DNA of 64,000 nt from a virus (taxonomy: Duplodnaviria > Caudoviricetes). Both the position numbers and the translations under genes were made by a program. Below are positions 20,400 to 59,012 of the stretch, piece after piece; positions within the stretch are counted from its first letter, which is position 1, and each line of letters begins with the position of its first letter. The notes under the pieces were generated by a model. That model did not search any database and was not told the origin of the DNA. It saw only the letters and a program-made list of their open reading frames with translations. Where the stretch lies: IMG/VR virus record IMGVR_UViG_3300020036_004254. One strand, written 5' to 3'.

Positions 20400-20665
20400 A
20401 TGTTTTGCAGAAAGGTTTCTTGGACGGGAGATTCGAAGCTCCCCGCCTCCATTCTGTTTATACCGTCTACATTTTGTTTTCGGGGGCGAAATGGATTCGA
20501 CAGGGAATTAAGTACACCAAAACCGCTATCCGAAAAGGCGAAGGGCCGTAAGCCCTAGCGAAAACTTAAAGGAGAATAACAACTATTCGACCTTGCTTCT
20601 TTCTGGTGCGCTTCAAGCCGCCTAAGGAAACTGAGCATCGCCCACTTGGAAACAGAACGGGCAAT
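20400..20665 (+). ncRNA. ssrA: permuted (two-piece) tmRNA
   Basis: acceptor piece GGACGGGAG-ATTCGAAG-CTCCC-CGCCTCCA (ends 20451) precedes coding piece GGGGGCGAAATGGATTCGAC (starts 20482); G3.U70; tag ENNNYSTLLLSGALQAA* at 20572-20625. Confidence 0.88.
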
Positions 20666-20666
20666 C

Positions 20667-20700
20667 CTTCTCGGCATATCTTCGGGTGTGCCGAGAAGTT
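20667..20700 (+). terminator. strong hairpin after tmRNA
   Basis: CTTCTCGGCATATC-TTCG-GGTGTGCCGAGAAG. Confidence 0.65.
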
Positions 20701-20774
20701 CTCGTTTGGGGGGTTGACAAGCCATGGCAGACCGACTACATTTCTTACATGAACCCCTTACCAAAGGAGTGACA

Positions 20775-28366: not shown

Positions 28367-28951
28367 TTAAGATGAGACTGTCGAATCTTCTGTTAGTTTA
28401 CGTCCCCGCAACGAATTGCGGATACGTTCTTTGGACTCCTGAGATAATGTAGCACCCGTTCTCGTGGGGTGTCCCCTTCTACTATTCGAAATATTCTTTC
28501 GTGTTTCTATGGGTGTTGATAACCCCCGATTCCAAGTGACACACCCCTTCTTCGCTCTTGAAATCGCTTCACAGTGGGATTTTGACCGCTTCCTGCCCTT
28601 AAGCGAATTTGAGATTTTCATTTTATGTTGTTCAGTCATGGCCCCCGCGTGATGAAAAGGACCGTTGAAAAGAGATTGATTTAACCATTCAACTCTTTCG
28701 TGAAGTCGCATCTTGGCTATGACTTTCTGCTCCCAATCAAATGCGTCGGGACCACTAGAAAAAGTTTTTCGTATTTCAAATTTGAACGACTCTTTACCAA
28801 ATTGTGATATGAGTGATTTAACCTTTTTTGAACTAGAAAAATACGTTCTCCAAAGGTTGTTGGGGTGCGCTTTTTTACCATGCTGAACCCCGTAATACTT
28901 CAGTCCAGTTGGAATATGGTAAAGAAGATAAGTGTATGGAGTTGGTGTCAT
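28367..28951 (-). CDS. GIY-YIG-type homing endonuclease with NUMOD3 repeats
   Basis: PYTYLLYHIPTGLKYYGVQ...YFSSS...WEQKV...WLNQ; paralog of 17694-18287. Confidence 0.88.
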   Translation of the reverse strand: MTPTPYTYLLYHIPTGLKYYGVQHGKKAHPNNLWRTYFSSSKKVKSLISQFGKESFKFEIRKTFSSGPDAFDWEQKVIAKMRLHERVEWLNQSLFNGPFHHAGAMTEQHKMKISNSLKGRKRSKSHCEAISRAKKGCVTWNRGLSTPIETRKNISNSRRGHPTRTGATLSQESKERIRNSLRGRKLTEDSTVSS

Positions 28952-29403
28952 GATATTATATCCAAATCTTTTTCTGTTATAAGCATGAATTGCATATCGT
29001 TTGCGTCAGCGAATTTCGTGGCCGCTTTCCATTTTGCTAGGTTGATGCCCCACTGCTTTACCTCGGCAACAAACCGCTGTGTCTTCCGTTTAGGAATCGT
29101 TGGCTCCTTCGTGAAGCGCGAGGGCTTTACTTCAACAATATATTTTTGAATTTTGCCCGATTTTGTTCTGATTTTAATGTAGAAGTCAACAAAGTATCGG
29201 TGCATCTGACTATCGATAGGACTCTTGTAGGGAACTACCACTTCCTCACTCCCCCACTCCAATACATTGGTGTTCAAATCACACCATTTCATGAAACGAA
29301 TTTCGTAAGAAGACCGATAGACGATATTCATAAAATCCCCACGATATTTCTGGGGATTTTGAGGTTGGAATTTTCCTTTGTAGCAATCTTTTCTATACGC
29401 CAT
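28948..29403 (-). CDS. 4: head completion nuclease gp4
   Basis: KY.GD..NIVYRSS.E, W.SEE, HRYFVDF, EVKP, N.AKW.AA, ITEKDL. Confidence 0.92.
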   Translation of the reverse strand: MAYRKDCYKGKFQPQNPQKYRGDFMNIVYRSSYEIRFMKWCDLNTNVLEWGSEEVVVPYKSPIDSQMHRYFVDFYIKIRTKSGKIQKYIVEVKPSRFTKEPTIPKRKTQRFVAEVKQWGINLAKWKAATKFADANDMQFMLITEKDLDIIS

Positions 29404-32403: not shown

Positions 32404-34347
32404 ATGGCGAACTTTTTTGATAACGGTGGGTTTTTTTGGTGGACGGGTGTGGTAGAAGACCGCAACGACCCGTTGTTTTTGGGTCGTTGTAAAGTGCGTA
32501 TTGTTGGATATCATTCTTCTGACACGACCGTGTTGCCGACTGAGGATTTGCCGTGGGCAACAGTGGTTCAGCCTATTACTTCTGCCGCCATGACCGGAAT
32601 AGGTCAAACCCCGCTTGGGTTGGTAGAAGGAACGTGGGTGTTGGGATTTTTTGCAGACGGCAAAGATAATCAAGAACCCATGGTATTGGGTGCGTTGGGT
32701 GGTATTCCCCAAAGTGCATATTACAATTCCGTTCCAAAAACACAAGGATTTCAAGACGCAACAAAAACCTATCCGGTCACCGAGTTGTTAGATGAACCAG
32801 ATACCAATCGATTGGCCAGAGGAATTCGGACAACCTTCGTAGATGATAAGGATTCAAGACGTTCCAAAAATATTCCATTATCCCGGGATAACGGAACATG
32901 GAACGAACCAAAAAGTCCCTTTGCCGCCAAGTACCCATTTAACCACGTTCGTGCAACCGAATCGGGGCACATTCAAGAATTTGATGATACCCCGGACGCC
33001 GAGCGTTTGCACACGTATCACAAGGCAGGAACATTTACAGAAGTAGACCGGAATGGTACACGTGCCACCCATATCATTGGAGACAACTACGAAGTCTTGG
33101 AACGAAATGGGTATTTGTACATCAAGGGAAAAATGAATGTGACCATAGACGGGTCGTCAAATGTCTATGTTAAAAACAATTGCAATCTTCAAGTCGATGG
33201 TTCGTTGTTAACCGACGTTCATGGGGATTATACATTGAACGTGGCAGGGGACATTAAAGTCTCTGGCGGAAAGACCTTTCAAATGAGAGCCAAGAAAGGC
33301 GTCAAACTTCGTGGTAAGGGGGTTGATATCAAATCCGACTCTTCTATCAATATGTTGGCAAAAACATCTATCGGTTTGAAAGCCGGGATGTCTATGTACT
33401 TGGAGGCGGCGTCAAAGTTTGCCATCAAAGCGGTAACAGCGGCAGTTGATGCGGTATTCCAACAGAAGAATATGACGGTTTCTACCCCCAGCGTCGAGGC
33501 AACAACCGCGTTGGCGTCAGCGGCAGTTGGTACGGCAGGTAACCCATCTGTTCCTGCGGCGGTAGAATCCAAGTCTCCAACAGAACCCACGTTCTCAAAC
33601 TTGGGATTTGTGTTATCCGAAGCACAGAAAAAATCATTTAAGATTGAGGCGTTTAAAGCTCAAGAGGCCGCAAAGGATACCAAAATGGTTCCAGCAGGTC
33701 GTCAGGTTGCTCAGGAATACGCCGATTTGAAGACGGAAGAGTTGTCCAGCAACGCTGTGGTGTCAGCCCCGGTTATTCCAGAAGACACCGCGACAGAAAC
33801 AACCCCGGTAGATTACACCTGTGAGGTGGGTATGCGGGTTGTAGAATTCGCCAAACAGGACATTGGGGTTTTGGAAACAAGTACACCACCCGGAAAAAAT
33901 TATGGTGGTAAGCGTGGCGGTGGTGCCTTGCCTGTAGGAGAGTTTGGTCGAATTGATGAAATGTTGGAAATTGCTGGACTGGATAACAAAGCGGAAGTTC
34001 GAAGAAAAGGCGAGGGCTTTTACTGGTGCGCGGCGGCGGTTACCGCATGGTGGAAAGCCGCAGGATTGCCAGTTCCGGTTGGCCCAGCCTCATGTCGAAA
34101 CTGGGAATCGTGGGGTCGAAAGAATGGATATTTTTCTAGCACCCCGAAAATTGGTGCGGCTGTTCTCTATGGACCATCCGGAGCGGCACACCACATTGGT
34201 ATCGTTTCGGCGGTGGATGCAGACGGCAACATCACCACCATTGAAGGAAATACTAGTGGCGGTGGATTTACTCGTAATGGTTGTGGCGTTTTCTACAAAA
34301 CCCCTCGGTCGTATATCGGGTTTATCATTCCACCCACTTGCTCATAA
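32404..34347 (+). CDS. 5: baseplate spike gp5 with C-terminal CHAP peptidase domain
   Basis: WWTGVVEDRNDP..LGR.KVR OB fold; YPFNHV..TESGH..EFDDTP; C-terminal WCAA...HIGIV...IEGNT. Confidence 0.9.
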   Translation: MANFFDNGGFFWWTGVVEDRNDPLFLGRCKVRIVGYHSSDTTVLPTEDLPWATVVQPITSAAMTGIGQTPLGLVEGTWVLGFFADGKDNQEPMVLGALGGIPQSAYYNSVPKTQGFQDATKTYPVTELLDEPDTNRLARGIRTTFVDDKDSRRSKNIPLSRDNGTWNEPKSPFAAKYPFNHVRATESGHIQEFDDTPDAERLHTYHKAGTFTEVDRNGTRATHIIGDNYEVLERNGYLYIKGKMNVTIDGSSNVYVKNNCNLQVDGSLLTDVHGDYTLNVAGDIKVSGGKTFQMRAKKGVKLRGKGVDIKSDSSINMLAKTSIGLKAGMSMYLEAASKFAIKAVTAAVDAVFQQKNMTVSTPSVEATTALASAAVGTAGNPSVPAAVESKSPTEPTFSNLGFVLSEAQKKSFKIEAFKAQEAAKDTKMVPAGRQVAQEYADLKTEELSSNAVVSAPVIPEDTATETTPVDYTCEVGMRVVEFAKQDIGVLETSTPPGKNYGGKRGGGALPVGEFGRIDEMLEIAGLDNKAEVRRKGEGFYWCAAAVTAWWKAAGLPVPVGPASCRNWESWGRKNGYFSSTPKIGAAVLYGPSGAAHHIGIVSAVDADGNITTIEGNTSGGGFTRNGCGVFYKTPRSYIGFIIPPTCS

Positions 34348-34761: not shown

Positions 34762-36656
34762 TGACTGACTTGCGCGTAACCGAACTAGATTTCGAGGCGA
34801 TTAAAACCAATCTTAAGAATTTCATGAGGGCACAGTCTGAGTTTTCAGACTATGATTTTGACGGGTCGGCGTTGAATGCGTTGTTAGATGTGTTGGCGTA
34901 CAACACCCACTATAACGCGATGTTGGCGCATTTGATGTCAAATGAAATGTTTATTGACACCGCTATCAAACGGTCGTCTGTCGTGTCTATCGCTAAAACA
35001 ATGGGGTACATCCCGCGTTCGTATTCGGCGGCAAGAGCTACAATCTCGTTAACCGTTCCTACAGACAGTCCACTTCCGATGACCGTGGACACCTCAACCA
35101 AATTCACCACCACCAAAAACGGAACTCCTTATACATTCAATGTTGAGGAATCGGTCACCGTCACCCCGGAAGCGATTAGCGGGGGATATCAGGCGGTGTT
35201 TCCAGAGGTGTTGTTGGTTGAAGGTACTCGTCTCCAAAATGCATTCACCGTGACGGCAGATAACCGACAGGGACCGTTTGTCATCCCCGTTGAAAATATT
35301 GATTTGTCAACCATCCGGGTTGTGGTGAAAACCTCTGCAAACGTGGAAGAATACACCGTGTTTACACGGTCGTTGACGGTTGTAGACGTTTCAGACACCA
35401 GTACCGTGTTTTGGGTAGAAGAGAATGCAGACGGGAAGTTTCAATTGATTTTTGGTGACGATGTCATTGGTGCCACGCTGGATGTGGGTAATATTGTCAC
35501 CGTGTACTATGTGGCGTGTAACGGGAGTACACCAAACGGGGTTCGCACGTTTACTCTTTCTGGTACAGTTGGCGGAACCTCTAATGTCACGATTACCACG
35601 GTTGATGTGGCTGGGGCTGGTGCGGAAAAAGAAACCATCGATAGCATTCGGTTTAATGCACCCAAGTTCAACAACACCAGAAATCGTGCGGTGACTGCTC
35701 AAGATTACAAGTCGTTGATTCTTGCAGATTCGAATATCAACTTCAAGGCCAATTCTATTTCCGTGTGGGGTGGAGAAGAAAACATCCCCCCGGTGTACGG
35801 AAAGGTCTTTATCACTATCGACCCAACAGATTCGTATCTTATCACGGATTCTGACAAAAAGTATATCATTGACCGAATTTTGCGTCCTCGAAGTGTCATG
35901 TCTATCCAACATGAGTTTGTAGACCCTGAGTTTATCTATTTGGGGTTTGATGTGGTCATTTCCTACAATGAAAACATCACCAACTTGTCTTCGACTGAGT
36001 TGACCGCGTTGGCACACGACCGTATCACAGAGTTCTTTTCTGAGAATCTCTCTACACTAGACCGAACCTTTTTCTTCTCACAGCTTGTTGATGCTATCAC
36101 CACCATCAACCCTGCCATTTTGGGTGTGTTGGTGAATATGCGTATTCAGAATCGTATTACAAAGCTGGCATCGTTTAACACAACCAAGAACCTTCGCTTT
36201 TTGGCTTCGTTAGAACCCGATAGCATTTCTAGTACAGTGTTTGTTTCTTTGGTAAACGGAATTTCGTACAACGCCTATATTAAAGATTTTCACGATGGCG
36301 TTATCAAAGACCCCACTGGGACTGGAACATTGAAGTTGTTGGAGGCGGACACCAACACCGTATTGGTGTCTGCATTGGGCACCGTTGACTACAAAACAGG
36401 CATTCTGTCCTTCTCAGATTTGAACATTTCTTCCTATCTGGGGAACATCACGGATGTTCGAATCAACGCCGTCCCACAGAGCCTTTCCAAGAACATTTCC
36501 CCCAGTGTGATTTCTGCAACCGAACAATCCACTAGCGCGGTGTTTCCGGCACCAGCAAAAAACATCATCATTGAGCTAGATGACAGCGAAATCAATACTG
36601 CTATCAAGCTAAACCCCGGGTTGAACATTACCACCATTCCGTTTAGCGAACTCTAA
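34761..36656 (+). CDS. 6: baseplate wedge gp6
   Basis: LDFE.IK.NL, DYDF.GS, LAYNTHY, RSSVVS.AK, RAVT..DY, WGGE, YGKVFI. Confidence 0.93.
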
Positions 36657-39223
36657 TGTCTTCTTTCCGTCATAAGCTTCATCATTTTATTTCAGGACAA
36701 ATCCCGGATTACATCCGGGAGAACTATCCTATATTCGTATCTTTCGTTCAAGCCTACTACCTATTTCTTGAAGAAACGGGTGAGGCGAATGATGTGTTGC
36801 TGAACACGGATACGTGGATGGATATTGACCAAACGCTTGATGACTTCATTCCGCTGTTCCAAAAGCAGTACATGGGAAACATTCCCCAGAGTGCCATTGT
36901 TGACATCAAACGTCTTATTAAGTTTGTCAACGAATTTTACGAGGCCAAGGGGTCGGAAAACGGAACCGAATTGTTCTTCCGATTTATGTTTAATGATACC
37001 GCCAGTGTCAAATATCCGGGAGATAACCGTTTGGTGGCATCTGGTGGAAACTGGAAGCAACGAAAAAGCATCAAACTAGATACCGGAACGATTTCCACTG
37101 ACAACAACCCCTTCTTGATGAAGGGGCGAAAGATTTTTGTTGAGTATACCCTGTACGAAAATGGGGTGGGAAATGTTGTGTATCGGGTTCCCGTATCATG
37201 CCTTGATGTGGTTAAACTATCAGCACCAAACATTTATCGGTTGGATGTAGAACTATCAGATTCGGTCGTCTTCCCAGACACCGCGATTAGCACACACCCC
37301 TCCAACGAAGCGGAGACGGTGTACGACAGTCATTTGTATGTTTTGATGAATTTGACTTCTGACGAGGACATGCAGTTGGGTGTTGCCCCATCATGGAGTG
37401 CCTGTGGCACGTTGTCCAAGCAATTGGTAAGCATTAAGCGCATTGTAACTGGCGGAACAAACTTTCGTGTCGGTGAATCGTTTTATGTAAATGAAGGTGG
37501 AACCTCTGGTGAATATTTCGAGTTTGATGTGGATGTCCCGAGTGAATGGTATACATTAAACATTAGTGGAACCGACGCATATGTGTCTCCGTCACTCATG
37601 TTAAACAACGCCATCGTTCGTGTTCGGAATATTATTTCTGAGAATCTGGGTCCGTATTTTGCCCAGAACTACACGGTGGATTTGTTTGAAACATATACCA
37701 CCGAATCCAGAGATAGGCAAATTCGCCATCTTCAAATTGTTACTACAGGTCAGCGTTTTTCGGTTCGAGAATATTTCAACCCGAGATACTTCATTTCGTA
37801 TAGCGACCCGCTTGATGATTATTTGGCGGAATCAACCCCATCGTACAACTCGTATACATTTCCGATTGAGCTATTGGAAGATTCTGTTCCGGTCAGCGAA
37901 GTGAGTTTTGATTTTTACGCAAAAGATGCGGGTGAAATGGCCACGGTCATTTTTAACACGGGTTATGTGTATGTCGAACCCGGGCGTTATGTAGATAGCG
38001 TCAGTTTGTTGTCAGAAATGAATAAGTTGCAAGACAATTTCTTGTTTCAACCATATTCCTACACTGTCAAAACCCATCAGGGGTTTGATACGTGGAAAGA
38101 CGCATATACCAAATCAAATCACCCTGCTGGATTTATTCTTTTTGCCAACTTGAACATTGATGAGTTGACACCATTAGATGTTACGGTCGAATCGGTAGAT
38201 GTGGATGAAACGTTTGTTATTGTTAGCGCAACCCCATCTGTCACACCAACCCCGTCCATAACGTTAACACCGTCAGTTACCCCTTCGGTGACGCCGTCGA
38301 TTACACGAACCCCGTCGGTGACAGCTTCAGTTACCCCCACACCAACCCGCACTCCATCGATTACTGTCACCCCTTCGATAACACCAACTGTAACGGTAAC
38401 ACCGACCAGAAACGCTTCATCATCTGTGACGCCGACAGTCACCCCGTCGATTACCCGTACACCTTCGGTCACCCCGTCAATTACCCCATCGATTACCCGT
38501 ACACCTTCGGTCACCCCATCGATTACCGCTTCTACGACCCCAACGGTAACCCCGACGGCGACACGGGCCGCAACAGCTACTCCGTCTGTTACCCCATCGA
38601 TTACCCCAACGGTAACACGTTCGGTGTCGGTCACACCAAGTATTACCCCGTCAATAACCCCATCAGTTACCAGAACACCCTCGGTGACGCCGTCGATTAC
38701 ACGAACCCCGTCGGTGACACCGTCGATTACCCCGACTGTTACACCAACTCGTACTACATCAGCAACCCCTACCCCAACCCCTACCCCAACTGTTACCCCA
38801 ACTCCCACAATCACCACCATCTGTTATGTCACAGGGGATTTACTAACAGGCCCGGGTCAGGCATCATCAATTTTGGCGTGTGCATTGGGTGATACACTTG
38901 ATATTACAGTGTACACCGATGGTGCTTTGTTCTACAGTGATTTCCCGTGTAGTGGTGGGTTGGTCCTTGATGGGTATTACAAGACCGCTTCAAACGGTTG
39001 GATTCAGTACAGCGGTGGCTCTGTTATAAATAGTGGAAGTTGTGCTATCCCGCCAAGCCCATCAGTTACACCGACCCCGACCCCAACCCCTTCAGCGGGT
39101 TGCCCAGAGGTTGGAACTAATATTTGTCAGGGTATTGACTTGTACATTGCCGACGGTGCCTGTGGTTGGTCACAGATTTGCCCAGATAACATCGCTTGCG
39201 GTGGTACACAAAGTTGTTCATAA
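36656..39223 (+). CDS. 7: baseplate wedge gp7-like protein with C-terminal mucin-like TPS tract and Cys-rich tip
   Basis: [37 protein letters not shown]; then roughly 200 aa of TPSV/TPSI repeats. Confidence 0.8.
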
Positions 39224-39257
39224 CGTATAAATATCCCTATATCAACCACAGGCCACA

Positions 39258-41210
39258 ATGAAAAAACGTCCAAGTAGAGCAAGATTGGCAAGAATCGTTC
39301 CGGGTCCACCAGCCCCGGAACGGGTTACCAATGATGTGTTGATTGACGGGGTATGGTATCTGAACCAACCCCTTGCCCCGTCTCATACCCCATCAGTTAC
39401 CCCAACGCCTTCTATATTGATTTCGGTTTCTGTGACCCCGACGGTAACCCCGACGGTATCTGTGACTCCGTCCATCACCCCGTCGATTTCAATTTCTTCG
39501 ACACCATCGGTTACCCCGTCGGTAACTGCATCAGTCACCCCATCTATAACACCTTCTTCGTCGGCCAATGCCACCCCATCGGTGACCCCATCGGTAACAC
39601 CGTCGGTAACTGCGTCTGTGACGCCAAGCGTCACTCCATCTATTACTCGCACGGCCTCCGTGACACCATCGGTAACCCCATCGGTGACTCGTACCGCGTC
39701 GGTGACGCCAAGTGTTACCCCAAGTATCACTCCAAGTATCACTCCAACAATCACACCAAATGCGTCTACTTCTGTAACTCCAACAGTTACACGCACGGCT
39801 TCTGTGACTCCGTCTGTCACACCAACGAGAGACGCTTCGCCATCAGTGACACCAACGGTTACTCCGTCAATCACCTTGACACCGTCGGCTTCTCCTGATT
39901 TGGGCGCACCAGCGTTTAATGAAAGTTTCTTGGTTGCATCAGACACCAATGGGTCACCAGACGGAACAACCGCAAATCCGTTGACTATTACGGTGAAAGA
40001 CCTTCTTGGAAACTTGTTGTCCGGTGAAAGTGTATCCTACGACATTGAAAGAACGTTTGTGGATGCAGACCAAACCACTCTTACTGGCGATTTGCTCGAA
40101 ATTGAAACCACAACAGGTGTGTTGACACTAACGTTGCATATCAAGAACAGCGCGGGCGTCCCGCTCCCGGGTTGGGCAACCAAGGATATCATTTTCTCTG
40201 CAACGGGAACAGGAAATACCTTTACCCCAATCGACAGTATTTCTGACCGCAATGGTGATTATCGTGTTTCGTTCTCATCAACAGAAAATGAAGTGAAGAT
40301 TATCACTGTTTCTGTTAAGAATATTGCTATTACACAGAACTATTCCGTTGTAGTAACCACCCCGGGTGTTGTCACGCCACTCTTTTTCTCGGACTTCTCT
40401 ACAGCAACCGGAACTTCTTCTCTGGCACGTTCGGATAACAGTAAGTGGAACATTGTTGGTGATTTGACTATTATTGCAAACCCCGGAAACATCGGAATGC
40501 CGTCGAACATGGTCAACGTGGCACAAGTTCCGTGGTATCCTGTAGCGGGTGGTGGAGCAACAAACAGAAAGGGTGGTTTGACCGCCCCGTCTCCTGAAGG
40601 ATTGTCGTTGCCAAACCCGGGTGATTTACAATACTATAGATGGTACTATGAAAACGAACAACCCAATGGTACTGTTGACGAACAAACACACCCTGTACAA
40701 GACGGTGCCGCCGCTGGAACCCTGAACTGGGAACTTGCCGTGCGTAACGATGTGGACGGTGGATACTACGGAAACCAAATTCTTTTGAACTCTGCTGTAC
40801 TTGGGAATGTAAGAATCTTTCAATCGCCAAGATTAGATAAATTCAAAACATATCGGTATGAAGTTAAATTGACCGTGATTTCAACAACCGAATTTAAACT
40901 ATCTGTCAGAGTATATGATGAGGCAATAAGCACCATTGTTCCAATTTTGACGGATGCTGATTATGTCCAAACATCGCCGCTTGTTGGTTCACCACCGACT
41001 ATGGAAGAATATTTCGTTTCTCAAAATCATGTATTCTTGAATTTCGATTACGTTGAGGGATTGAACATTGGTGTAAACGATGGTGGTCAGGCTGGTGAAG
41101 AAGGTATTTACGGTCACCAAGGTGGTGTGGCCATTACAAGAAATACCGTATTGAATGAAACAGTTTGGGTGGGTCCATATGGAACAGTAAAGGGGGAAAA
41201 CAATGGCTAG
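39258..41210 (+). CDS. mucin-like stalked virion protein A (N-terminal tag, TPS tract, Ig/invasin-like domains, beta-rich head)
   Basis: late promoter TATAAATA at 39226; [18 protein letters not shown]; TPS repeats. Confidence 0.8.
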
Positions 41211-42606
41211 TCCAGTCCGGTCTACAACAGGTGATGTTGAACTCACATTTGATGCAACATTAGATGCGAGTGGAACAATTGTAACACAAGCATTTGACGC
41301 TGGGTCTGATGCGAATAGACATTTGTTGGCCATTATCACTTATGATGGTGCATCGTCGCATACATTAGGAGACACTTCTTGCGCGTATAACGGTGTTACT
41401 ATGTCCCCGTTAGGAGCATCTTTTGGTTCTGGTCAGTCCAGAACTCGTGTTTTTCAACTTATAAACCCAACCTCTGGCTCAAACGACTTCACTCTAGACC
41501 CAAGCGCGGGTGTTGGGTCAGAAGATGTTGTGATAACTCTTATGTGCAAATCAAATGTTGACCAAACAACTGCATATGAGAACTATGTTACCGCAACAGG
41601 AACAGATTCGTCAAACCCATATACATCAGCAGTGACCATTACATCTAGTGCGACTGATAGATTGGTGGTAACTGGTCATGCGGTACGTGCATCTTCTGTT
41701 ACAGGAGGAACAGCGACAAACTTCACAGAAAGAACAGATAACGTTAACGCCAACATAGGGTTGGTGACAGGCGAAGCGGCTGGCGCATCAAGCGTGGCAA
41801 CCAGTGTGGCGTGGGCAGGTGTTTTCGCAATTGATTATGGGGCATTTGGTATCAGTCTCGTTGGTATTAGCCCCGGGCCAACCATTACTTCAGAACCATC
41901 AAGTGCCGCCGTGGTGTTAAACAATGATACAAGAACCAGCGCAACATTTGTTGCAACGGCGGTTGGTACTGGTGATATCATTGGTCAGTGGCAAAAGGAA
42001 GGGGTAAACATTTCAAACGGCGGAATCTATTCTATCACAGAATCCCCCGCTGGTACGTTTACTTGTATTGTCACCCCAACCGACGCAACATTTGACGGTC
42101 AAACAATTACTTGTGAGTTAACTGACGATACCGGAACTAGAGAAACTGTTGGAGCGATACTCACCATTCTTAACGGACCAGAAGTAAATCCAACGTCGGG
42201 TTCTACTACTGCTGGTGTACACTCTACCGATTTGACGAGTGACGATGAATTGTTAGACGCAGGGGAGTGTTTGTTGATTAGCGGCAGAATTGCGGCAAGT
42301 GTGGTGGCGCGAACCATCACAAACCCCATGTATCCGTCTGTCACGCCTTCGTTGACCGCAACCCCATCGGTAACACCAAGTATTACCCCATCCGTGACGA
42401 GAACACCGTCGATTACCCCATCACTGACAGCAACACCAACTGTAACACCAACCCGTGATGCATCCCCAACACAGACGCCATCGGTGACACCAAGTATTAC
42501 GCCTACCATCACCAGAACACCATCGTTGACACCGAGTATTACCCCGTCAAGAAGCCCGTCAAGAACACCGACACCAACACCAACTCCGTCAACCAGCCGC
42601 CCCTAA
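41203..42606 (+). CDS. virion protein with beta-rich domains, Ig-like domain and C-terminal TPS tract
   Basis: 467 aa Ser/Thr/Gly-rich; PTITSEP...QWQK...ITC Ig pattern. Confidence 0.75.
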
Positions 42607-44040
42607 ATGAAAAAGAGACAATCTAGAGGTTCTATAGGGGGAGGGCGGGGTGGAAATGGTGGAAAACCCATTCTCAACCGTAGCGGAAATGATGTGTTGA
42701 TAGATGGGGTGTGGTATATCAACCAACCACTTGCTCCGTCTCGCACACCGAGCATAACCCCTACGGTCAGCACATCAGTTTCGGCCACCCCATCAGTCAC
42801 CCCATCTGTAACAAGAACTCCTTCTATTACCCCATCTATTTCTCTTAGTGTTACCCCAACGGCAACGCCGTCTGTAACACCAAGCATTACCCCGTCGGCA
42901 ACCCAAACACCCTCGGTGACGCCAAGTGTTACCCCAAGTGTTACCCCAAGTTCATCACAATTTGTCAGTCAGAGTGTGACCCCGAGTGTCACACCCTCCG
43001 TGACACCCAGCGTAACCGCTTCAGTAACACCATCGGTAACACGAACACCGTCTGTTACACCGAGTATTACTCCATCTATCACTAGAAGTGTTTCACCAAC
43101 AACAACGCCTTCTGTAACACCGACAATCACTCCTACCCCAACGAGGAACGCAAGTGTAACCCCAACTCCATCTATTACCCCAACTGTGGGCAGTGGACTT
43201 TGGACACCTGTATTCTTAGCGGATTGGGGAACTAGTACGGGAACTGGGACAACTGCGTTACGAGACGGTACAACATTCGATGCTCTTTCCCCGGCTTCTG
43301 CTGATAACGGTGAAGTCATAGCCGCTCCGGGTGGTTACGGGTGGAACACCGTTAACATTCTTCATCATTATTCAATCAATGATGCCAGAGCCGGATGGTT
43401 GGAGATTCAGAAAAATACATTGGGGGTACAAGCCGAAGGAGAAGTTCGCAACTTCCGATGGGCGCATGTAAACATTCACCCAACCGCCGCAGAAGGGGCA
43501 ACAGATAACTCGCATCATTGTATACAGGACGGATATCCGTCGGGTGCAGGTTCGTTTCAAAATTGGAACATCACAGACGGAACAAACTTTGTTGGAGAAT
43601 GGGAACCGAACTTTCTAATCTCTAACGGGGGTGGTGGACGGTACTATCTAAACTCTGCCGTGACGCCAACCCGTCTTAACAAAGACACGCGGTACACCTT
43701 TGAAGTACAAATTGTTAGAGGTACGACGGGGGCTGGTACGTCCAACGCATTCCGTTTCCGTGCGTGGATTTATGATGAAAATGGGGTGGAAATCTACGGA
43801 CCATCAGACTTTGTGTCCAATTTGTATTCAGGTGAGACTTTGGCCAATGACCGTTGGCACACGTACAACAATCTCAATGGAACTCAACAGTTTAACATTG
43901 GGTGTAACGGTGCGACTGCCACAAGCTATCCTCTCTCGGTTGGGTATTTTGGAGAAGTAGCAATGGTATCCAGTATCTCTGATGGGGATTTGACAGCGGG
44001 TACAGCTATTGGTGTATATGGAACATGTTCCGGAGAATAA
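42607..44040 (+). CDS. mucin-like stalked virion protein B
   Basis: MKKRQSRG...[21 protein letters not shown] tract, head domain paralogous to A and C. Confidence 0.8.
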   Translation: MKKRQSRGSIGGGRGGNGGKPILNRSGNDVLIDGVWYINQPLAPSRTPSITPTVSTSVSATPSVTPSVTRTPSITPSISLSVTPTATPSVTPSITPSATQTPSVTPSVTPSVTPSSSQFVSQSVTPSVTPSVTPSVTASVTPSVTRTPSVTPSITPSITRSVSPTTTPSVTPTITPTPTRNASVTPTPSITPTVGSGLWTPVFLADWGTSTGTGTTALRDGTTFDALSPASADNGEVIAAPGGYGWNTVNILHHYSINDARAGWLEIQKNTLGVQAEGEVRNFRWAHVNIHPTAAEGATDNSHHCIQDGYPSGAGSFQNWNITDGTNFVGEWEPNFLISNGGGGRYYLNSAVTPTRLNKDTRYTFEVQIVRGTTGAGTSNAFRFRAWIYDENGVEIYGPSDFVSNLYSGETLANDRWHTYNNLNGTQQFNIGCNGATATSYPLSVGYFGEVAMVSSISDGDLTAGTAIGVYGTCSGE

Positions 44041-45462
44041 ATGAAAAAAAGACAATCAAGGGGTTCGGTGAATATAGTACGTGGCGGTCCGCCGATTCTT
44101 CAAAGAACTGGCAATGATGTATTGATAGATGGGGTGTGGTATATCAACCAACCCCTTGCTCCGTCTCACACTCCTAGTGTAACCCCGACAACAAGTGCTT
44201 CTGTCTCGGTGACACCGTCTATCACACCCAGTGTAACAGTCACCCCATCAATCACCCCGAGTGTCTCGGTGACGCCGACAGTTACAAGAAGTGTAACCCC
44301 ATCGGTTACGCCGTCAGTAACGGTAAGTGTCACTCCATCAATCACCCCAAGTGTGACCCCAACGGTCACCTCAAGTGTATCTCCATCGGCAAGCCCGGGT
44401 ATATCAAGGACACCATCGGTCACACCTTCAGTAACAGCGAGTGTGACTCCGTCGATTACTCCTTCAATCACCAGAACACCATCGGTCACACCTTCAGTAA
44501 CAGCGAGTGTGACTCCGTCGATTACTCCTTCAATCACCAGAACGCCGTCAGTAACTCCGAGCATTACACCAAGTATAACCCCAACCGCAACGGCAAACGC
44601 ATCGCCGTCTCCAACTCCAACCCCAACCCCATCTACCGGAGCGCAAACGGTACAATTTCAATCGGACTTTGGATTTGCATTGGGAACAAGCACCTCTGCA
44701 AAAGGTGATAATGGAAAATGGGATTTGTTGGGTGGTTCTGGGCAAGAAGTTGTTGCCTCTACAGGGTTGGATTTCCCATCTACGAACGTGTGTAGATTTA
44801 CCGCAAACTATTCAAACAGTGGATTTGCTTTAAACCGTCACACAGGAATGCCAACTATACCCGCTGGGACTACTAGATATTACAGATGGTATGTTCGAAT
44901 GGAGTTTCCTGATGAGTTGGTTGGAAATGGTGACCACCCATGGCAAGATGGTAACGCAGTAGGAAGTTCTAACTGGATGGTTGGTGTGCATTATGGTTCC
45001 GATGTTGGTGGCGCACATGCCAGCGATTGGCAAATAGGTGCTATCATGTTGTTGGATACGGATGGGTTGTTTGATAACGGCCCGTGGTTGTCCAAGAGTG
45101 TTACCTATCGCGTAGAAGTGGCGGTACATAACATTGACGACTCACAATATAACTATAGTCAGCGTGTTTATGCCAGTGACGCCGATGGTGGTGCATTGCT
45201 ATATAGTGCATCTGATTTCCCCGCCGATGCGGGTGGTGGAACTCTTGCAACACGAGGGCCATGGAACTGGGATAACTTGGCATGGTCTGACGGACTTAAC
45301 TGCGGAACTAACGATTTTGAAACCGCTGGAAACGAGTCATGGTGGAATGTTGGTTCCCCGACCTTCCTTTATGGTTATCAAGGATGCTTCCTTGTGCTTG
45401 ATAGAACAGAAAGTATTTCAGCCGGAACATGGGTTGGTCCATACGGGGCTATCGATGCCTAA
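44041..45462 (+). CDS. mucin-like stalked virion protein C
   Basis: MKKRQSRG...[21 protein letters not shown] tract, head domain paralogous to A and B. Confidence 0.8.
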   Translation: MKKRQSRGSVNIVRGGPPILQRTGNDVLIDGVWYINQPLAPSHTPSVTPTTSASVSVTPSITPSVTVTPSITPSVSVTPTVTRSVTPSVTPSVTVSVTPSITPSVTPTVTSSVSPSASPGISRTPSVTPSVTASVTPSITPSITRTPSVTPSVTASVTPSITPSITRTPSVTPSITPSITPTATANASPSPTPTPTPSTGAQTVQFQSDFGFALGTSTSAKGDNGKWDLLGGSGQEVVASTGLDFPSTNVCRFTANYSNSGFALNRHTGMPTIPAGTTRYYRWYVRMEFPDELVGNGDHPWQDGNAVGSSNWMVGVHYGSDVGGAHASDWQIGAIMLLDTDGLFDNGPWLSKSVTYRVEVAVHNIDDSQYNYSQRVYASDADGGALLYSASDFPADAGGGTLATRGPWNWDNLAWSDGLNCGTNDFETAGNESWWNVGSPTFLYGYQGCFLVLDRTESISAGTWVGPYGAIDA

Positions 45463-45499
45463 ATGTTGTATAAATAGTCATACATCTTAACCGTCAATT

Positions 45500-47191
45500 A
45501 TGCCCACACTACTTAAGTTGAGAACAGAAGCGGCTCGCTCATTCCTGAGAGACGTAACGAACGAGAATGATGTTTTTCATATCTTTTTCGGCAAAACGGA
45601 CCCTTGGGACGACGATAACGCACCACCAGCGGTAACCGATACACGGTTGACGGATGCTGACGCACACGCAAACATTCTTGCAGTAAAGAGAATTGGTATT
45701 AATGATGTGGCATACTTAATCCCCAACGTTGTGTGGGACTCAACTGCCCTAACGGTGTATGACCGTTATACGGACAACGCAGACTTGTCTGAGTTGAATT
45801 TTTATGTGTACAATGACAGCAACTATTGCATTTACAAATGTTTGAATAGACAAGATTTGATTGACGGCAATGCCGGGGTGTTGTTTCCAGAGGCGGCGGT
45901 TGATGGAGATTATTACACCAGCGGTCTTTACAAGTGGAAAAAGGTTGACGGGTCGTGGAATCTTGTGTCTACTGTTATCCCCAGTGATTCAACCGGGACA
46001 GAAAAGTTCAACACGGTTGATGGATACTGGTGGAAAATGGTATATAAGATTCCAGACGCAGACCGGGAAAAGTTTGCCACAGCGGATTATCTCCCGGTGC
46101 GATTTATTCCTTCAAGCACATTGTTTGATGTCATGGGACACATTCCTGTGGTTGGTGGAATCACTATTACCAACCCGGGAAGTGGGTATACCACCGCACC
46201 AACTGTTATTATCACCGGAGACGGAAGTGGAGCATACGCGACGGCGTCGGTCAATAAATACGGTGAAGTAATAGATATCCAAGTTATTGCCGAGGGTCAC
46301 GGGTATTCCTTTGCTATCGTAGATTTTGTTGGTGGTGGGGGAACAGGGTGTACTGCAACGGCAAATCTTGAACCAGATGGTCCTATTCCTGAAGACCCAA
46401 ATGTCATGGTTGCTTCTACGGCATTAGCAACCGCTGGCGCGATTGAATTTATTGACATTGAAGATGGTGGACAAAACTATTCCGCCACTTCGCAGTTTAC
46501 TGTTGAAGGTGATGGAGAGGGCGCAACCGTCATCGTTGTCATCAATGAAAGCGGGTCCATTGAATCGATTCAAACAAGTAACATGGGAACGGGTTATACC
46601 TATGCAAACATTGTATCTTCTGGGTCAGGAGAGAACGCAGTGTTGCGACCGATTATCAGCCCAATTTGGGGACATGGGGGAAATGTCCCTACCGAGTTGC
46701 TAGCCTCTATTGTGGGTATTGTTGTTGACGTTGAAACACCATTTACCCCACCAACCCCACAAGGTGATTTTTTCATCGGCAATGATTTCCGGCAAGTTGG
46801 TGTCATCAAAAACATTAGAGAATATGGGTTGTATGGAAATGTGTTTGTTGAAGACACCGGAGATTCGTGCTATAAGATTTCTGTAGTTGACATTTCGGCG
46901 TATAACATTGACGATGTGATTGTTAGTGATACGGGTGGTCGATTCATAGTAGTAGAAAAGAACCCATACCCTGAAACCAGTGTGGTCAAGCTTCTTCCCA
47001 TAACTGACAGTATCACTATTGACAGCGCACTGACCAACGAAACAACCTCATCTGCATTGGCGACTTTAATCGACGTTGTTTCGCCCGAGATAAATAAGAA
47101 AACGGGTGACATCATTTATCTGAAAAACCTATCCCCGTATACACGACAGCTTTATCAAACTGAGACAGTAAAACTTTATCTTCAATTCTAA
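45500..47191 (+). CDS. 8: baseplate wedge gp8-like protein
   Basis: GK..PW, YD.Y, FYV, YKCLN, DGY.WK..Y, GHG, NDFRQVG; late promoter TATAAATA at 45469. Confidence 0.85.
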   Translation: MPTLLKLRTEAARSFLRDVTNENDVFHIFFGKTDPWDDDNAPPAVTDTRLTDADAHANILAVKRIGINDVAYLIPNVVWDSTALTVYDRYTDNADLSELNFYVYNDSNYCIYKCLNRQDLIDGNAGVLFPEAAVDGDYYTSGLYKWKKVDGSWNLVSTVIPSDSTGTEKFNTVDGYWWKMVYKIPDADREKFATADYLPVRFIPSSTLFDVMGHIPVVGGITITNPGSGYTTAPTVIITGDGSGAYATASVNKYGEVIDIQVIAEGHGYSFAIVDFVGGGGTGCTATANLEPDGPIPEDPNVMVASTALATAGAIEFIDIEDGGQNYSATSQFTVEGDGEGATVIVVINESGSIESIQTSNMGTGYTYANIVSSGSGENAVLRPIISPIWGHGGNVPTELLASIVGIVVDVETPFTPPTPQGDFFIGNDFRQVGVIKNIREYGLYGNVFVEDTGDSCYKISVVDISAYNIDDVIVSDTGGRFIVVEKNPYPETSVVKLLPITDSITIDSALTNETTSSALATLIDVVSPEINKKTGDIIYLKNLSPYTRQLYQTETVKLYLQF

Positions 47192-52913: not shown

Positions 52914-53576
52914 ATGGCTATCACACCACTTTATACACTTCGAAGCGCGAAAGGAACGCCATTGACAAATGATGAGGTCGATGGTACGTTTCAATACCTC
53001 AAGGACGCCATCGATGCGTTGGAAGAGGGTGTCTTTTCGAACTCTGGTGAACTAGCCGGATTGTTGGGCGACGAAACAGGAAGCGGAAAGGCGGTATTCA
53101 ATACCAATCCGGTATTCGTGACCGGAGTATACACCACCTCTTTGTCTTTTGAAGTTTTCAATACCACCGCCACCACCATTAACGCCTTTGGTGCCGCCAC
53201 CACGATTAATTTTGGTGCGCCGGGATGTACCACCACGTTCCAAGGTGATGTCCGGGCAACTGGTGATTTGGTATCTGCCGCCTCATCTGATATTCGATTG
53301 AAGACCCGTGTGCGTCCGATTGAACATGCTCTTGAGCTTGTGGCGGCTCTCCGTGGTGTCACGTGGGAATGGAGAGAAGAGGTGAAGGATGCAGTCAAGC
53401 AAATGCCCAAGACTGGTCTTATTGCTCAAGAGGTTGAGACGGTATTTCCAGAAGTGGTCACTACACGAGAAGATGGGTTGAAGGCAATTCATTATGACCG
53501 CATCATTGGTTTGTTGGTCGAAGCAATCAAGGAATTGAATGAAAAGGTTGAACGTCTTGAGAACAAGGGTGTATAA
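52914..53576 (+). CDS. short tail fibre protein with intramolecular chaperone (peptidase S74) domain
   Basis: KGTPLTNDEVD N-terminus; SDIRLK...GLIAQEVE.VFPE.V...LVEAIKEL. Confidence 0.85.
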   Translation: MAITPLYTLRSAKGTPLTNDEVDGTFQYLKDAIDALEEGVFSNSGELAGLLGDETGSGKAVFNTNPVFVTGVYTTSLSFEVFNTTATTINAFGAATTINFGAPGCTTTFQGDVRATGDLVSAASSDIRLKTRVRPIEHALELVAALRGVTWEWREEVKDAVKQMPKTGLIAQEVETVFPEVVTTREDGLKAIHYDRIIGLLVEAIKELNEKVERLENKGV

Positions 53577-54173
53577 ATGACACTTCAGGGAAGTGGGCAG
53601 ATTAGCTTAAACGATATTCGGGTGGAAATGGGGGAGTCCGGGGGAAACTATTCTTTAACGGAACTTTCTACTGTCCCCAAACTGAATACCGGGGCGTCCC
53701 CACGCCCTGATGGTGCGGCACCTCATGCGATGTCTGAATTCTATAGTTACAATCATCTGACCAACGCATCACCGACCCCAACACCAACACCGACCCGTAA
53801 TGCGTCTCCGTCAGTCACCCCGACGTTGACCCCAACGGTGACCCCAACGGCAACACGCAATGCGTCTCCGTCAGTCACCCCATCGATTACGCCGTCTATC
53901 ACTCGCAATGCGTCTCCGACCCCGACGCCAACCCCGTCAACATGTTTTGCATTCTTCACGACTACGCTGTACACACAGCCGTCTGGAACAGACTGTAGCG
54001 GAGCATCTGGGGCGTTCACCGCATATCACAACACCTCCCCGATTGAATTTGGTACTAGAATCTACAGTGCATCTGGGTGTACGTCTCCCATCGATGGTCG
54101 CTTCACCGATTCTAGCCGAATCTACACATTGGTGACTGGTACGGTGACAAACATTGAGGATTGCGTTGCTTAA
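53577..54173 (+). CDS. fibre-tip/adhesin-like protein with TPS tract
   Basis: MTLQGSGQISLNDIR.E...MSEFY N-terminus, TPS tract, Cys-bracketed C-terminal domain. Confidence 0.7.
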   Translation: MTLQGSGQISLNDIRVEMGESGGNYSLTELSTVPKLNTGASPRPDGAAPHAMSEFYSYNHLTNASPTPTPTPTRNASPSVTPTLTPTVTPTATRNASPSVTPSITPSITRNASPTPTPTPSTCFAFFTTTLYTQPSGTDCSGASGAFTAYHNTSPIEFGTRIYSASGCTSPIDGRFTDSSRIYTLVTGTVTNIEDCVA

Positions 54174-54226: not shown

Positions 54227-55477
54227 GTGAAAGATTTAATCTATGTGCAAATTGCGGCGTACCGTGACCCTGAGTTATTGAAAACGGTTCGTGAATGTTT
54301 TAACTTGGCAAAACACCCAGAGAAAATTCAAATGTGTATTGCATGGCAACATGCACAAGAAGACACATGGGACACGTTAGCGGAGTTTCAAGACCACCCT
54401 CAAGTTACCATCATTGACATAGATTACAAAGACGCTCGTGGGGTGTGTTGGGCAAGACACAAGCTCAATAAAGAGTATCGTGGTCAAAAATACACCCTTC
54501 AGTTAGATTCTCATCACCGATTTACGCAAGATTGGGATGCCGAACTCAAGAAAATGTTTAAGGGGTTGGTGAAACAGGGTTTCAAGAAGCCTCTGATTAC
54601 CGCATATCTTCCCAGCTACGACCCAAACAACGACCCGGGTAGTCGAATCACCACCCCGTGGAATACGGACTTTGACCGTTTTTCCCCAGACGGAAACGTC
54701 CATTTTCAACCCAACAGCATCGATGACTGGCGCGACCGCCCACATCCAATCCCAGCACGATTTGTGTCTGGGCACTTTCTGTTTACATTGGGTAAGTTTT
54801 GTAAGGAAGTAGAGTATGATTCATCATATTATTTCCATGGGGAAGAAATCAACTTGTCTGTCCGTGCGTACCTTGCGGGATATGACCTGTTTCACCCCAA
54901 TAAAGTCATCATGTGGCACGAATACACTCGTTCCAACAAAAAGAAGCATTGGGACGACCACACGAACTGGAATGCGTTAAACGATTTCTCCCACGCGCAC
55001 AATCGACAAATGTTGGGTATCGATGGCGTGGTCCAGCCCCGAGTGACGGGAAATGCGCGTCAACTAGAAGATTATGAACGGTATGCGGGTCTTCAGTTCA
55101 GCACACGACGAGTTCACACCAAAACGATTGAAAAGAAGTATCCGCCTATTTGTACGGCAGACGACCCAACCTTTGAAGAAGGTCTTCGAAGCTTCCGACG
55201 GTACTGTATCGATTTGTACAAGGGAGCGTTTACTGAAACGGACTATACGGTGTGGGTATTGGCATTTAAGGACGCCGACGGAAACGAAATCTACCGAGAA
55301 GACGTTAGCCCAGACGAAATCAAACGGTTGATGGCAGAGATTCCTGATGATAAGTTTGTTCATGTATGGAGAACTTTTTTCTCGTCCGCGTTGCCAACTA
55401 AATACATTGTGTGGCCAGCCACCACCTCAAAGGGTTGGTTGCCTATTATTGAAGGTTCATTAGTGATTGACAAGTGA
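54227..55477 (+). CDS. GT60-like polypeptide N-acetylglucosaminyltransferase 1
   Basis: IYVQIAAYRDPEL, ARGVCWAR, LQLDSHHRF.QDWD (DxH), ITAYLP, F.SGHF.F, YFHGEEI..SVR, WH. Confidence 0.85.
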   Translation: MKDLIYVQIAAYRDPELLKTVRECFNLAKHPEKIQMCIAWQHAQEDTWDTLAEFQDHPQVTIIDIDYKDARGVCWARHKLNKEYRGQKYTLQLDSHHRFTQDWDAELKKMFKGLVKQGFKKPLITAYLPSYDPNNDPGSRITTPWNTDFDRFSPDGNVHFQPNSIDDWRDRPHPIPARFVSGHFLFTLGKFCKEVEYDSSYYFHGEEINLSVRAYLAGYDLFHPNKVIMWHEYTRSNKKKHWDDHTNWNALNDFSHAHNRQMLGIDGVVQPRVTGNARQLEDYERYAGLQFSTRRVHTKTIEKKYPPICTADDPTFEEGLRSFRRYCIDLYKGAFTETDYTVWVLAFKDADGNEIYREDVSPDEIKRLMAEIPDDKFVHVWRTFFSSALPTKYIVWPATTSKGWLPIIEGSLVIDK

Positions 55478-55484
55478 GGTTGTT

Positions 55485-56741
55485 ATGAAGAAAAAGACCA
55501 TTTTCATCCATCTTCCGGCGTACCGTGACCCGGAACTTATTCCAACCATTAAAGATGCGTTGGCCAAAGCGAAGCACCCAAAGAACCTTCGGTTTGGAAT
55601 TTGTCATCAGTATAACCCAGAAGACACATTCGATGACTTGTCAGAGTTTGAAAATGACAAGCGATTCAAGATTGACAAAATCTTGTATACCAATGCCAAG
55701 GGGTTGCCCTATGCCCGTCAGCGTATCAATGATATGATTACTGACGAGACATACATTTTGCAGTTGGATTCACACCACCGATTTGCAGAAAACTGGGACG
55801 AGACACTTATCAACATGCACTCCAAGTTGGAGAAAGAGGGGTTCAAGCCCATTCTCACGGGGTATCTGCCGTTGTACGACCCGTTCAACGACCCCGCAGG
55901 TCGTAGCATGGACCCGTGGCTTCAGCATTTTGTGTGTTTCTATCCTCACGGCACCATTTTCATCCGTCCCAGCGGCATTCCAGATTGGAAGAATCTCAAA
56001 GGCCCTGTGCGGTCCAGATTCCTCTCTGGACACTTCTGTTTTGCCAGAACCGAATGGGCCAAGACAATCAAACACGACCCGGATATCTATTTCAGCGGCG
56101 AAGAAATCAACCTCACGGTTCGTTCCTTCACCCATGGATATGACATGTTTCACCCCCATGTGCTGGTCATCTGGCACTCTACCATGCGCGAAGAACGGGC
56201 TGGGAAACTGTCATGGGATGACGAGCATAAGCGTGGAGTGGACACCAACGCGCACCAGACACGAGGTCGTGCGAAAATTCGTCAGTTGTTCCGCACCGAG
56301 GATAACGGGTTTGATTTGACTGGGTATGACATCGGAACGGAGCGAACTATTCGGGACTACGAAGAGTACGCAGGGTTTGATTTCAAACGTCGGGCCGTTC
56401 AGAAATACACCTTGGATTACAAGTATCCGCCAAACCCCAAGGTGGATGATTGGGAAGCGAGCCTATGCACATCCTTCTATAACCTAATCTCGTTTGACAA
56501 GACCAATTTCAAACTGAAGGATTACGAGTACATGGTCTGTGCCTATGATGACGAAAACGGAAACAACATCCAGCGACAAGATTTTCAGAAACATGAAATT
56601 GAGAAGTTCATGGCACAGCCCGGAAACTGGGTACATTTTGAACGTCATTTTCTCACCGAGAAAAAGCCCTACAAATGGGTTATCTGGGCGTATAGCAAAT
56701 CACAAGGCTGGGCCGAACGTTTGGAACACATCATCCAATGA
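55485..56741 (+). CDS. GT60-like polypeptide N-acetylglucosaminyltransferase 2
   Basis: IFIHLPAYRDPEL, AKGLPYAR, LQLDSHHRF.ENWD, FLSGHF.F, YFSGEEI..TVR.FTHGYD, WH. Confidence 0.85.
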   Translation: MKKKTIFIHLPAYRDPELIPTIKDALAKAKHPKNLRFGICHQYNPEDTFDDLSEFENDKRFKIDKILYTNAKGLPYARQRINDMITDETYILQLDSHHRFAENWDETLINMHSKLEKEGFKPILTGYLPLYDPFNDPAGRSMDPWLQHFVCFYPHGTIFIRPSGIPDWKNLKGPVRSRFLSGHFCFARTEWAKTIKHDPDIYFSGEEINLTVRSFTHGYDMFHPHVLVIWHSTMREERAGKLSWDDEHKRGVDTNAHQTRGRAKIRQLFRTEDNGFDLTGYDIGTERTIRDYEEYAGFDFKRRAVQKYTLDYKYPPNPKVDDWEASLCTSFYNLISFDKTNFKLKDYEYMVCAYDDENGNNIQRQDFQKHEIEKFMAQPGNWVHFERHFLTEKKPYKWVIWAYSKSQGWAERLEHIIQ

Positions 56742-57412: not shown

Positions 57413-57415
57413 CGT

Positions 57416-59011: not shown

Positions 59012-59012
59012 T

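Follow-up and report, generated by a model that had tools for sequence, protein, structure and literature searches.

Why should a T4-like phage carry several additional genes between two components of its baseplate wedge? This question is raised by a 64,000 nt stretch of viral DNA (IMG/VR record IMGVR_UViG_3300020036_004254; the whole of this stretch is referred to here as the window), which is part of a T4-like myophage and in which a 6.2 kb block of four genes (39258-45462) is flanked by homologues of gp7 and gp8. An original prediction, made from the nucleotide sequence without database searches, held that this block is an insertion and that three of its open reading frames (ORFs 39258, 42607 and 44041) encode stalked adhesins with a shared N-terminal tag. 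We find that the block is most likely a late-transcribed accessory host-recognition cassette inserted in the baseplate wedge genes, and that it joins one conserved tag to three heads of separate origin.

A four-gene insertion between gp7 and gp8

The borders of the block match the T4-type wedge order gp25-gp6-gp7-gp8 (Table 1), and in relatives of this phage gp7 and gp8 are adjacent. The closest relative found was a 126.8 kb IMG/VR contig (L005), whose gp8 is 71% identical to that of the window. Here gp7 and gp8 are separated by 31 nt, and this spacer carries one copy of the T4-type late promoter motif TATAAATA. Pelagibacter phage HTVC008M has the same order as L005, namely gp25, gp6, a gp7-like gene, gp8 and the gene for a DUF4815 protein. 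The proposal of an insertion between gp7 and gp8 is therefore upheld. Within the block the four genes abut or overlap, the start of the second (P0002) overlapping the stop of the first (P0001) by 8 nt. Two TATAAATA motifs bracket the block where L005 has one at the corresponding place, and over the window as a whole there are 7 matches to this motif, all on the + strand, against 0.97 expected. The cassette thus lies within the baseplate module and, standing behind TATAAATA, would be expressed late.

The gp6 of the window is at most 38% identical to that of HTVC008M and the cyanomyoviruses, and a megablast search of 50,697 phage genomes gave no match to the region at the DNA level. Across the block the window is matched colinearly by three independent metagenome contigs, at 99-100% identity. 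Therefore, the block is not an assembly artefact or the product of repeat mis-assembly, and this explanation was dropped.

No head-family gene and no tag could be found in the whole of the L005 record, even when up to 3 mismatches to the tag were allowed. L005 does carry a gp7 with a TPS tail (a tract rich in Thr, Pro and Ser) and both of the PF11397 glycosyltransferase genes of the window. We therefore regard the stalk and the glycosyltransferases as traits of the lineage and the cassette as an add-on. The gp7 of the window has its own TPS stalk (approximately aa 560-745), which is followed by a Cys-rich C-terminal knob (aa 745-855; 38888-39220). In L005 gp7 stops at the end of the stalk and the knob is missing, such that knob and cassette co-occur.

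Table 1. Positions of the cassette, its neighbours and related features. Coordinates refer to the window, except in the last row, where they refer to the contig named.
Feature	Position (nt)	Strand	Details
gp5 homologue	32404-34347		OB domain and C-terminal CHAP domain
gp25	from 34363		baseplate wedge gene order
gp6	from 34761		baseplate wedge gene order
gp7-like baseplate wedge protein	36656-39223	+	855 aa; PF23786, phrog_17744; left border of insertion
TATAAATA, T4-type late promoter motif	39226-39233	+	3 nt past gp7 stop, 25 nt upstream of the ATG of ORF 39258
P0001, tagged stalked protein 1	39258-41210	+	650 aa; tag 39258-39383, TPS stalk 39384-39887, immunoglobulin (Ig)-like region with Big_1 39888-40355, head 40356-41207
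P0002 (ORF 41203)	41203-42606	+	467 aa; untagged beta-rich N-terminal domain, Ig-like region, C-terminal TPS tail
P0003, tagged stalked protein 2	42607-44040	+	477 aa; tag 42607-42741, stalk 42742-43200, head 43201-44037
P0004, tagged stalked protein 3	44041-45462	+	473 aa; tag 44041-44166, stalk 44167-44640, head 44641-45459
TATAAATA, second late promoter motif	45469-45476	+	precedes gp8; counterpart of the single gp7-gp8 promoter in L005
gp8 baseplate wedge protein	45500-47191	+	PF09215 (E = 3e-12), phrog_438 (E = 1e-78); right border of insertion
DUF4815 protein	from 47197		1838 aa; downstream of gp8
Stalked protein (ORF 53577)	53577-54173		198 aa; globular N-terminus (MTLQGSGQISLNDIRVEMG...), TPS tract, Cys-containing C-terminal domain of ~75 aa; no tag
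Two PF11397 genes	54227-56741	+	GT60-type polypeptide N-acetylglucosamine-transferase family; E = 8e-65 and 2e-51
Tagged head genes of SU10-like contigs	L091 3654-5399; L102; L104		one gene or two in tandem

One tag on three stalked proteins

ORFs 39258, 42607 and 44041 share a tag, a TPS stalk and a head exactly as had been described, and the overall plan, in which a tag and stalk in common precede a variable head, is borne out by alignment of the tags, the composition of the stalks and comparison of the heads. The claim that all three have a single architecture needs some qualification, in that P0001 has an extra Ig-like region between stalk and head. The remaining gene of the block, ORF 41203, lies outside the tagged family, since its product has a different architecture, with TPS at the C-terminus and no tag. 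A homologue of P0002 (P0170, 50% identical) directly follows an Ig-plus-head protein in an unrelated phage contig (L093), and the pair of an Ig-plus-head gene and a P0002-like gene is therefore present in both. An AlphaFold2 model of P0002 aa 1-345, built with a 3-sequence alignment, was too poor for a fold search (pLDDT 48.8), and the ESM Atlas model of P0002 points only to unnamed viral proteins of ~220 aa.

The tag comprises 42-45 aa and consists of a basic MKKR(P/Q)SR arm, a Gly/Pro-rich spacer and an invariant 18-codon core that ends in (L/I)NQPLAPS. A degenerate DNA pattern for the core has exactly 3 matches in the 64 kb, all of them in the three ORFs, compared with 0 expected. Between P0001 and the other two proteins the core differs by 5 synonymous changes and a single conservative L/I change, whilst P0003 and P0004 differ by 2 synonymous and no non-synonymous changes. 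Within the MKKRxSR block, the Arg codons are CGT or AGA and the Ser codons AGT, TCT or TCA. The predominance of synonymous changes and the mixture of Arg and Ser codon families indicate that the tag is conserved, and is under purifying selection, at the protein level. The segment between the arm and the core is free in sequence and length, yet remains Gly/Pro-rich and basic, and the DNA upstream of the tagged ORFs is not conserved.

A search for the tag in other phages gave a divided answer. The exact core was found nowhere else, whereas a tag of the same kind, M[NY]RRFSKGRNGLWK, is present on heads of SU10-like phages. Neither the window tag nor the SU10-type tag had a match in a degenerate DNA scan of IMG/VR, and a scan of metagenomes for the tag returned the same phage only, plus two unrelated chance matches. 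The core also had no match in a word-indexed protein database, a negative that is weak since public gene calls cut these genes. In the public calls for the window phage (L002, L003 and L004; P0025 and P0112) the stalked proteins are reduced to fragments of 187 aa and 405 aa, and spurious minus-strand ORFs are placed over the TPS repeats. We rejected these minus-strand ORFs as mirror-image artefacts of the repeat. Gene callers stop at the repeat and thus tags and stalks are missing from public protein databases.

A loose pattern, M-x-[KR]-R-x-S-[KR]-G followed by [ND]-G-[LV]-W-[KY]-[IL], is common to the window and SU10 tags, and many other phage-type members of the head family begin with an Arg-rich arm and then a Gly/Pro linker. 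We take this resemblance between the two tags as no more than a lead. RRF is present in the SU10-type tags, as in bacterial homologues with twin-arginine translocation (Tat)-lipoprotein signals; however, the SU10-type tags have no hydrophobic segment and the idea of a Tat signal was dropped. Lastly, prediction of a complex between P0004 aa 1-50 and the gp7 knob together with P0002 aa 1-345 scored 0.00 and, as it had no controls, speaks neither for nor against docking at these proteins.

The heads are predicted to adopt a ConA-like jelly roll

The C-terminal heads of the window proteins are ~275 aa in length and homologous but distant, with BLASTP E-values of 8e-28, 7e-12 and 1e-4 at 25-31% identity. 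In a family alignment of 55 members, the conserved columns agree with the motif skeleton that had been read from the three heads. Using this 55-sequence alignment, AlphaFold2 returned a confident model of the P0004 head (pLDDT 93.5, pTM 0.92). Foldseek against the PDB placed a polysaccharide lyase (PL) family 36 alginate lyase, TtX122 domains, PL20 glucuronan lyase, glycoside hydrolase (GH) family GH131, PL14 and PL7 at the top (TM ~0.47-0.52). A structure search independent of Foldseek returned 178 chains at Z >= 8, led by PL20 glucuronan lyase (Z 16.6 over 210 aligned residues, rmsd 3.3), GH131 (Z 16.0) and PL14 (Z 15.5). Moreover, the neighbours in the ESM Atlas were clusters of PF14099 (heparin lyase I family) and of PL14, at TM 0.66-0.68. 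At the level of fold the modelled head thus falls in the concanavalin A (ConA)-like lectin/glucanase beta-jelly-roll superfamily, as the suggestion of a lectin-like or lyase-like fold had anticipated, and is predicted to be closest to enzymes of families PL20, GH131 and PL14.

This relationship is confined to structure. Pfam gave no match for the three heads and five homologues at an E-value limit of 10, NCBIfam and PHROGs gave none for the heads, and a head profile searched against PDB sequences found only a dioxygenase at E = 0.63. For the tagged proteins the PHROG matches were low-complexity hits to the stalk only. By sequence profile, the heads do not belong to PL20, PL14, PL7, PL36, PL13/PF14099 or GH131. 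Feature neighbours in the Atlas (DUF6645, DUF6772, a sialidase-like carbohydrate-binding module (CBM) and lyase-like clusters) shared too few features to decide the matter.

Across the family R82 and H99 (numbering of the P0004 head) are conserved in 100% of members and Y84, R157 and E159 in 95-96%; Q102 and Y246 are likewise near-invariant, and D103, R175, Y177 and Q247 are conserved as well. In the alignment and the model these polar residues alternate along adjacent strands, as expected if they line one face of the concave sheet. Such conservation suggests a fixed chemistry.

Three heads of separate origin

The heads are not a set of local duplicates. The P0004 head shares 65% identity with P0005 and 57-59% with proteins of bacterial exopolysaccharide (EPS) loci, the nearest relative of the P0001 head is an SU10-type phage protein (P0149, 54% identical), and the P0003 head is ~30% identical to anything compared. 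In a FastTree phylogeny of 159 rows each of the three window heads is placed in a different clade, two of these clades have 99% support, and a single clade of window heads was rejected (40-row maximum-likelihood tree; difference in log-likelihood 161; approximately unbiased test, p-AU 7e-8). The original prediction of a paralogous family with diverged heads is not supported, as the heads belong to separate clades and each has closer relatives outside this phage. Therefore, different heads have been grafted onto one tag-stalk module, and the three proteins combine a common N-terminus with C-terminal domains of separate origin.

An exhaustive profile-free search placed the head family at at least 260 clusters at 50% identity (E <= 0.001). 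Among the matches listed, the head was C-terminal in 150 of 150. Longer members carry N-terminal Ig-like stalks (Big_1 in 17/54, Invasin_D3 in 13/54 and Big_2 in 11/54) and also Tat or lipoprotein signals; the bacterial members are exported, Ig-stalked proteins. All four bacterial members examined lie in EPS biosynthesis loci, which contain Wzx/Wzy, several GT4 proteins, a polysaccharide deacetylase, GDSL/AlgX-like and MBOAT acyltransferases and a PEP-CTERM protein. Other members are phage proteins and sit in hypervariable slots of tail modules.

A parallel in SU10-like phages

One such slot occurs in podophage contigs that were identified as SU10-like by their SU10 portal, SU10 adaptor and large terminase. 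The order is a 111-aa gene, a 53-aa gene, the head gene or genes and a 371-aa gene, and the slot adjoins the head-tail adaptor and tail genes. Between contigs the flanks of the slot are 88-100% identical, whereas the heads within it are only 32-36% identical. Every head in the slot starts with M[NY]RRFSKGRNGLWK and none has a stalk; L104 also holds a 109-aa tagged remnant. This is the classic hallmark of a host-specificity module that can be exchanged on a conserved anchor, and the window follows the same logic. The parallel shows that the combination of a tag with swapped heads is general for the head family.

Stalks and glycosyltransferases

The stalks consist of 153-168 aa of [ST][VI]TP[ST] repeats with a 4-residue period and are composed of ~50% Ser/Thr, 19% Pro and 21% Val/Ile. 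Such a repeat cannot form an ordinary helix or sheet. The stalk-coding DNA repeats are only 60-76% identical to one another. This divergence speaks against recent amplification or gene conversion and points to selection on composition over a long time; recent amplification was dropped on these grounds. TPS tracts also occur outside the block, in gp7 and in the 198-aa protein of ORF 53577. The Cys-rich end of ORF 53577 has no similarity by BLASTP to the gp7 knob.

The genome thus encodes both Ser/Thr/Pro tandem repeats, as in mucin-type domains, and polypeptide glycosyltransferase-family proteins. The two PF11397 proteins are candidate modifiers of the TPS stalks. Their genes lie in a late operon (54227-62137) behind a TATAAATA motif at 54182. 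This operon further encodes two composite proteins, one of an FkbM-type methyltransferase with GT2 and one of a methyltransferase with HtrL/YibB. A full-text search with the terms bacteriophage, GT60 and glycosyltransferase returned no paper that concerned phage GT60 enzymes in its title or abstract.

What the cassette may do

We consider it probable, with moderate confidence, that the three proteins are virion-anchored, tethered modules that bind or depolymerise EPS. Under this scheme the tag would attach all three at one kind of virion site, probably on the baseplate. The stalk would act as an extended tether, of ~40-50 nm if each of its 153-168 residues spans ~0.25-0.3 nm, and would probably be O-glycosylated by the GT60-type enzymes of the phage in the manner of cellulase Pro/Thr linkers or mucin domains. 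The heads would bind, and probably cleave, the EPS or capsule of the host, and as they belong to different clades they could give the particle three glycan specificities.

Several points weigh against this scheme. We infer both that the tagged proteins are present in virions and that the tag has a docking partner there. Searches of IMG/VR, the protein database, metagenomes and L005 did not turn up the exact tag core in any other phage. L005 does without the cassette, which is thus dispensable for assembly of the particle. Lastly, sequence provides no link between the heads and any PL or GH family.

Three further points bear on catalysis and favour the strongest alternative, in which the heads are non-catalytic lectins and the proteins, as in the original prediction, are virion adhesins that keep the phage bound to glycans of the host capsule or biofilm but do not cut them. 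Firstly, pure lectins share the fold at only slightly lower Z (~14): lectins and CBMs, among them ERGIC-53, legume lectins, sialidase CBMs and the CBM2 of the phage J-1 Dit, reach Z 13-14.4, not far below the enzymes. Secondly, the P0003 head, the most divergent of the three and on a long branch in the tree, has lost several conserved residues (Y84A, R157T, R175W and Q247F). Thirdly, two near neighbours in structure, Cip1 and TtX122, show no demonstrable activity despite their conserved Arg/His clefts (PMC10916295), and therefore catalysis by the window heads, with their similar Arg/His patches, is put forward conditionally. We take this alternative seriously but doubt it. The best structural matches are enzymes, and the bacterial members are found in EPS loci, where dedicated lyases or hydrolases are usual. 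Moreover, the conservation of an Arg and a His in 100% of more than 50 divergent members, together with a Glu (96%), a second Arg (95%) and a Tyr (95%), fits fixed chemistry better than variable binding sites.

A second alternative places the proteins outside the particle, as soluble late enzymes that are freed at lysis to digest the capsule or the biofilm matrix, with a tag that serves folding, stability or some other end. The absence of the cassette from the closest relative, such that it is not needed for assembly, and the failure to find a partner for the tag are what would be seen in this case. We nevertheless regard it as improbable, since the cassette is part of the baseplate wedge operon, downstream of a late promoter, and purifying selection maintains a short N-terminal peptide on three otherwise unrelated heads. 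In the SU10-like contigs, too, a tag with swapped heads beside adaptor and tail genes is typical of attached receptor-binding proteins.

That the tag is instead a signal which recruits the GT60 enzymes to the stalk was part of the original prediction and now, also with another modifier or chaperone in their place, seems very improbable. The tag does directly adjoin the TPS tract, and at a distance of 9 kb downstream there are two PF11397 genes. Nevertheless, gp7, ORF 41203 and ORF 53577 have long TPS tracts and no tag, L005 has PF11397 genes and a TPS-bearing gp7 and no tag, and in SU10-like phages the tagged heads lack a stalk altogether.

Returning to virion-anchored EPS-directed modules, we advance a bolder version only tentatively. 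Here single-chain, mucin-like, O-glycosylated tethers of 40-50 nm, each set in the baseplate by its short peptide, would replace the trimeric fibre or spike, and with three heads of different clades they would make up a 'glyco-tentacle' apparatus for capture and digestion. The lyase-like heads would have been captured from bacterial EPS-processing genes and would constitute a new PL or GH family, common to bacterial EPS loci and phage tails.

Other features of the window

The following observations concern other parts of the window. The gp5 homologue has a CHAP domain at E = 1e-10 and no lysozyme-family domain among its Pfam matches. Genes for a SegE-like GIY-YIG/NUMOD3 homing endonuclease and a TnsA-like endonuclease lie among the baseplate genes (28367-29403, - strand). 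The first 14 kb (1-14000) have a GC content of 52-57%, compared with ~46%, and contain few ORFs of at least 150 aa. ARAGORN called a tRNA-Lys at 2648, an odd tRNA at 3335 and a tmRNA-like feature at 20361 (20361-20716), the last of which may be spurious. Immediately upstream of ORF 53577, a 220-aa protein (52914-53576) has Peptidase_S74 (endosialidase chaperone) at aa 125-183 as its only Pfam match.

Significance and comparison with known systems

The head family, with its lyase-like fold, links bacterial EPS loci with hypervariable phage tail slots and is a candidate for a new, as yet uncurated family of depolymerases or glycan-binding proteins. The window cassette presents three natural specificity modules on one scaffold in an uncultured T4-like lineage. 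Display of heads by a peptide anchor and a mucin-like tether would differ from the usual rigid trimeric fibre, in a genome that also encodes GT60-type enzymes. It also exposes a blind spot of annotation, in that public databases hide the tags and stalks of such proteins.

Arrays of receptor-binding proteins or depolymerases with a conserved anchor and a swappable C-terminus are well known, for example the tailspikes TSP1-4 of CBA120, the dual tailspikes of K1-5 and SP6 and the multi-depolymerase Klebsiella phage PhiK64-1. As in the window, these are tandem tail or baseplate genes with a common N-terminus and glycan-directed C-terminal domains of separate origin, and they swap modules between close relatives, which is seen here in the SU10-like contigs. 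Those systems, however, use trimeric beta-helix spikes or fibres whose folded anchor domains measure ~100 aa or more. In the window the anchor is a peptide of 42-45 aa, a low-complexity tract of Pro/Thr/Ser/Val serves as spacer, and the head is modelled as a single ConA-like jelly roll from an uncurated family.

The modelled head has its fold in common with jelly-roll lyases and hydrolases, namely PL20 TrGL (2zzj), GH131 (3w9a), PL14 (5gmt and 3a0n), PL36 Aly36B (6kcv) and PF14099, at Z 14-16.6 over 203-234 aligned residues for the structures and at the TM given above for the Atlas clusters. The likeness extends to conserved Arg, His, Tyr, Glu and Gln on adjacent strands, whereas identity is only 8-14% and there is no match at the level of hidden Markov models. 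The stalks resemble cellulase Pro/Thr linkers and mucin domains, in which a repetitive Ser/Thr/Pro-rich tract joins functional modules, but differ in having Val/Ile at 1 residue in 5 and a strict 4-residue period, and their glycosylation is predicted. Phage-encoded glycosylation of virions in mycobacteriophages, as outlined by Freeman et al. (2023, PMC10527164), offers a parallel in that the phage encodes its own glycosyltransferases, here those of PF11397.

Siphophage baseplates also display CBMs, for example in the 'evolved Dit' of Lactobacillus phage J-1, whose CBM2 (5ly8) is likewise a ConA-like module and scores Z 14.1 to our head model. In J-1 a baseplate component engages the cell-wall polysaccharide of the host, and the window proteins would probably dock on the baseplate as well. 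The J-1 module is an insertion inside a core baseplate protein, whereas the window head ends a separate protein on a long tether.

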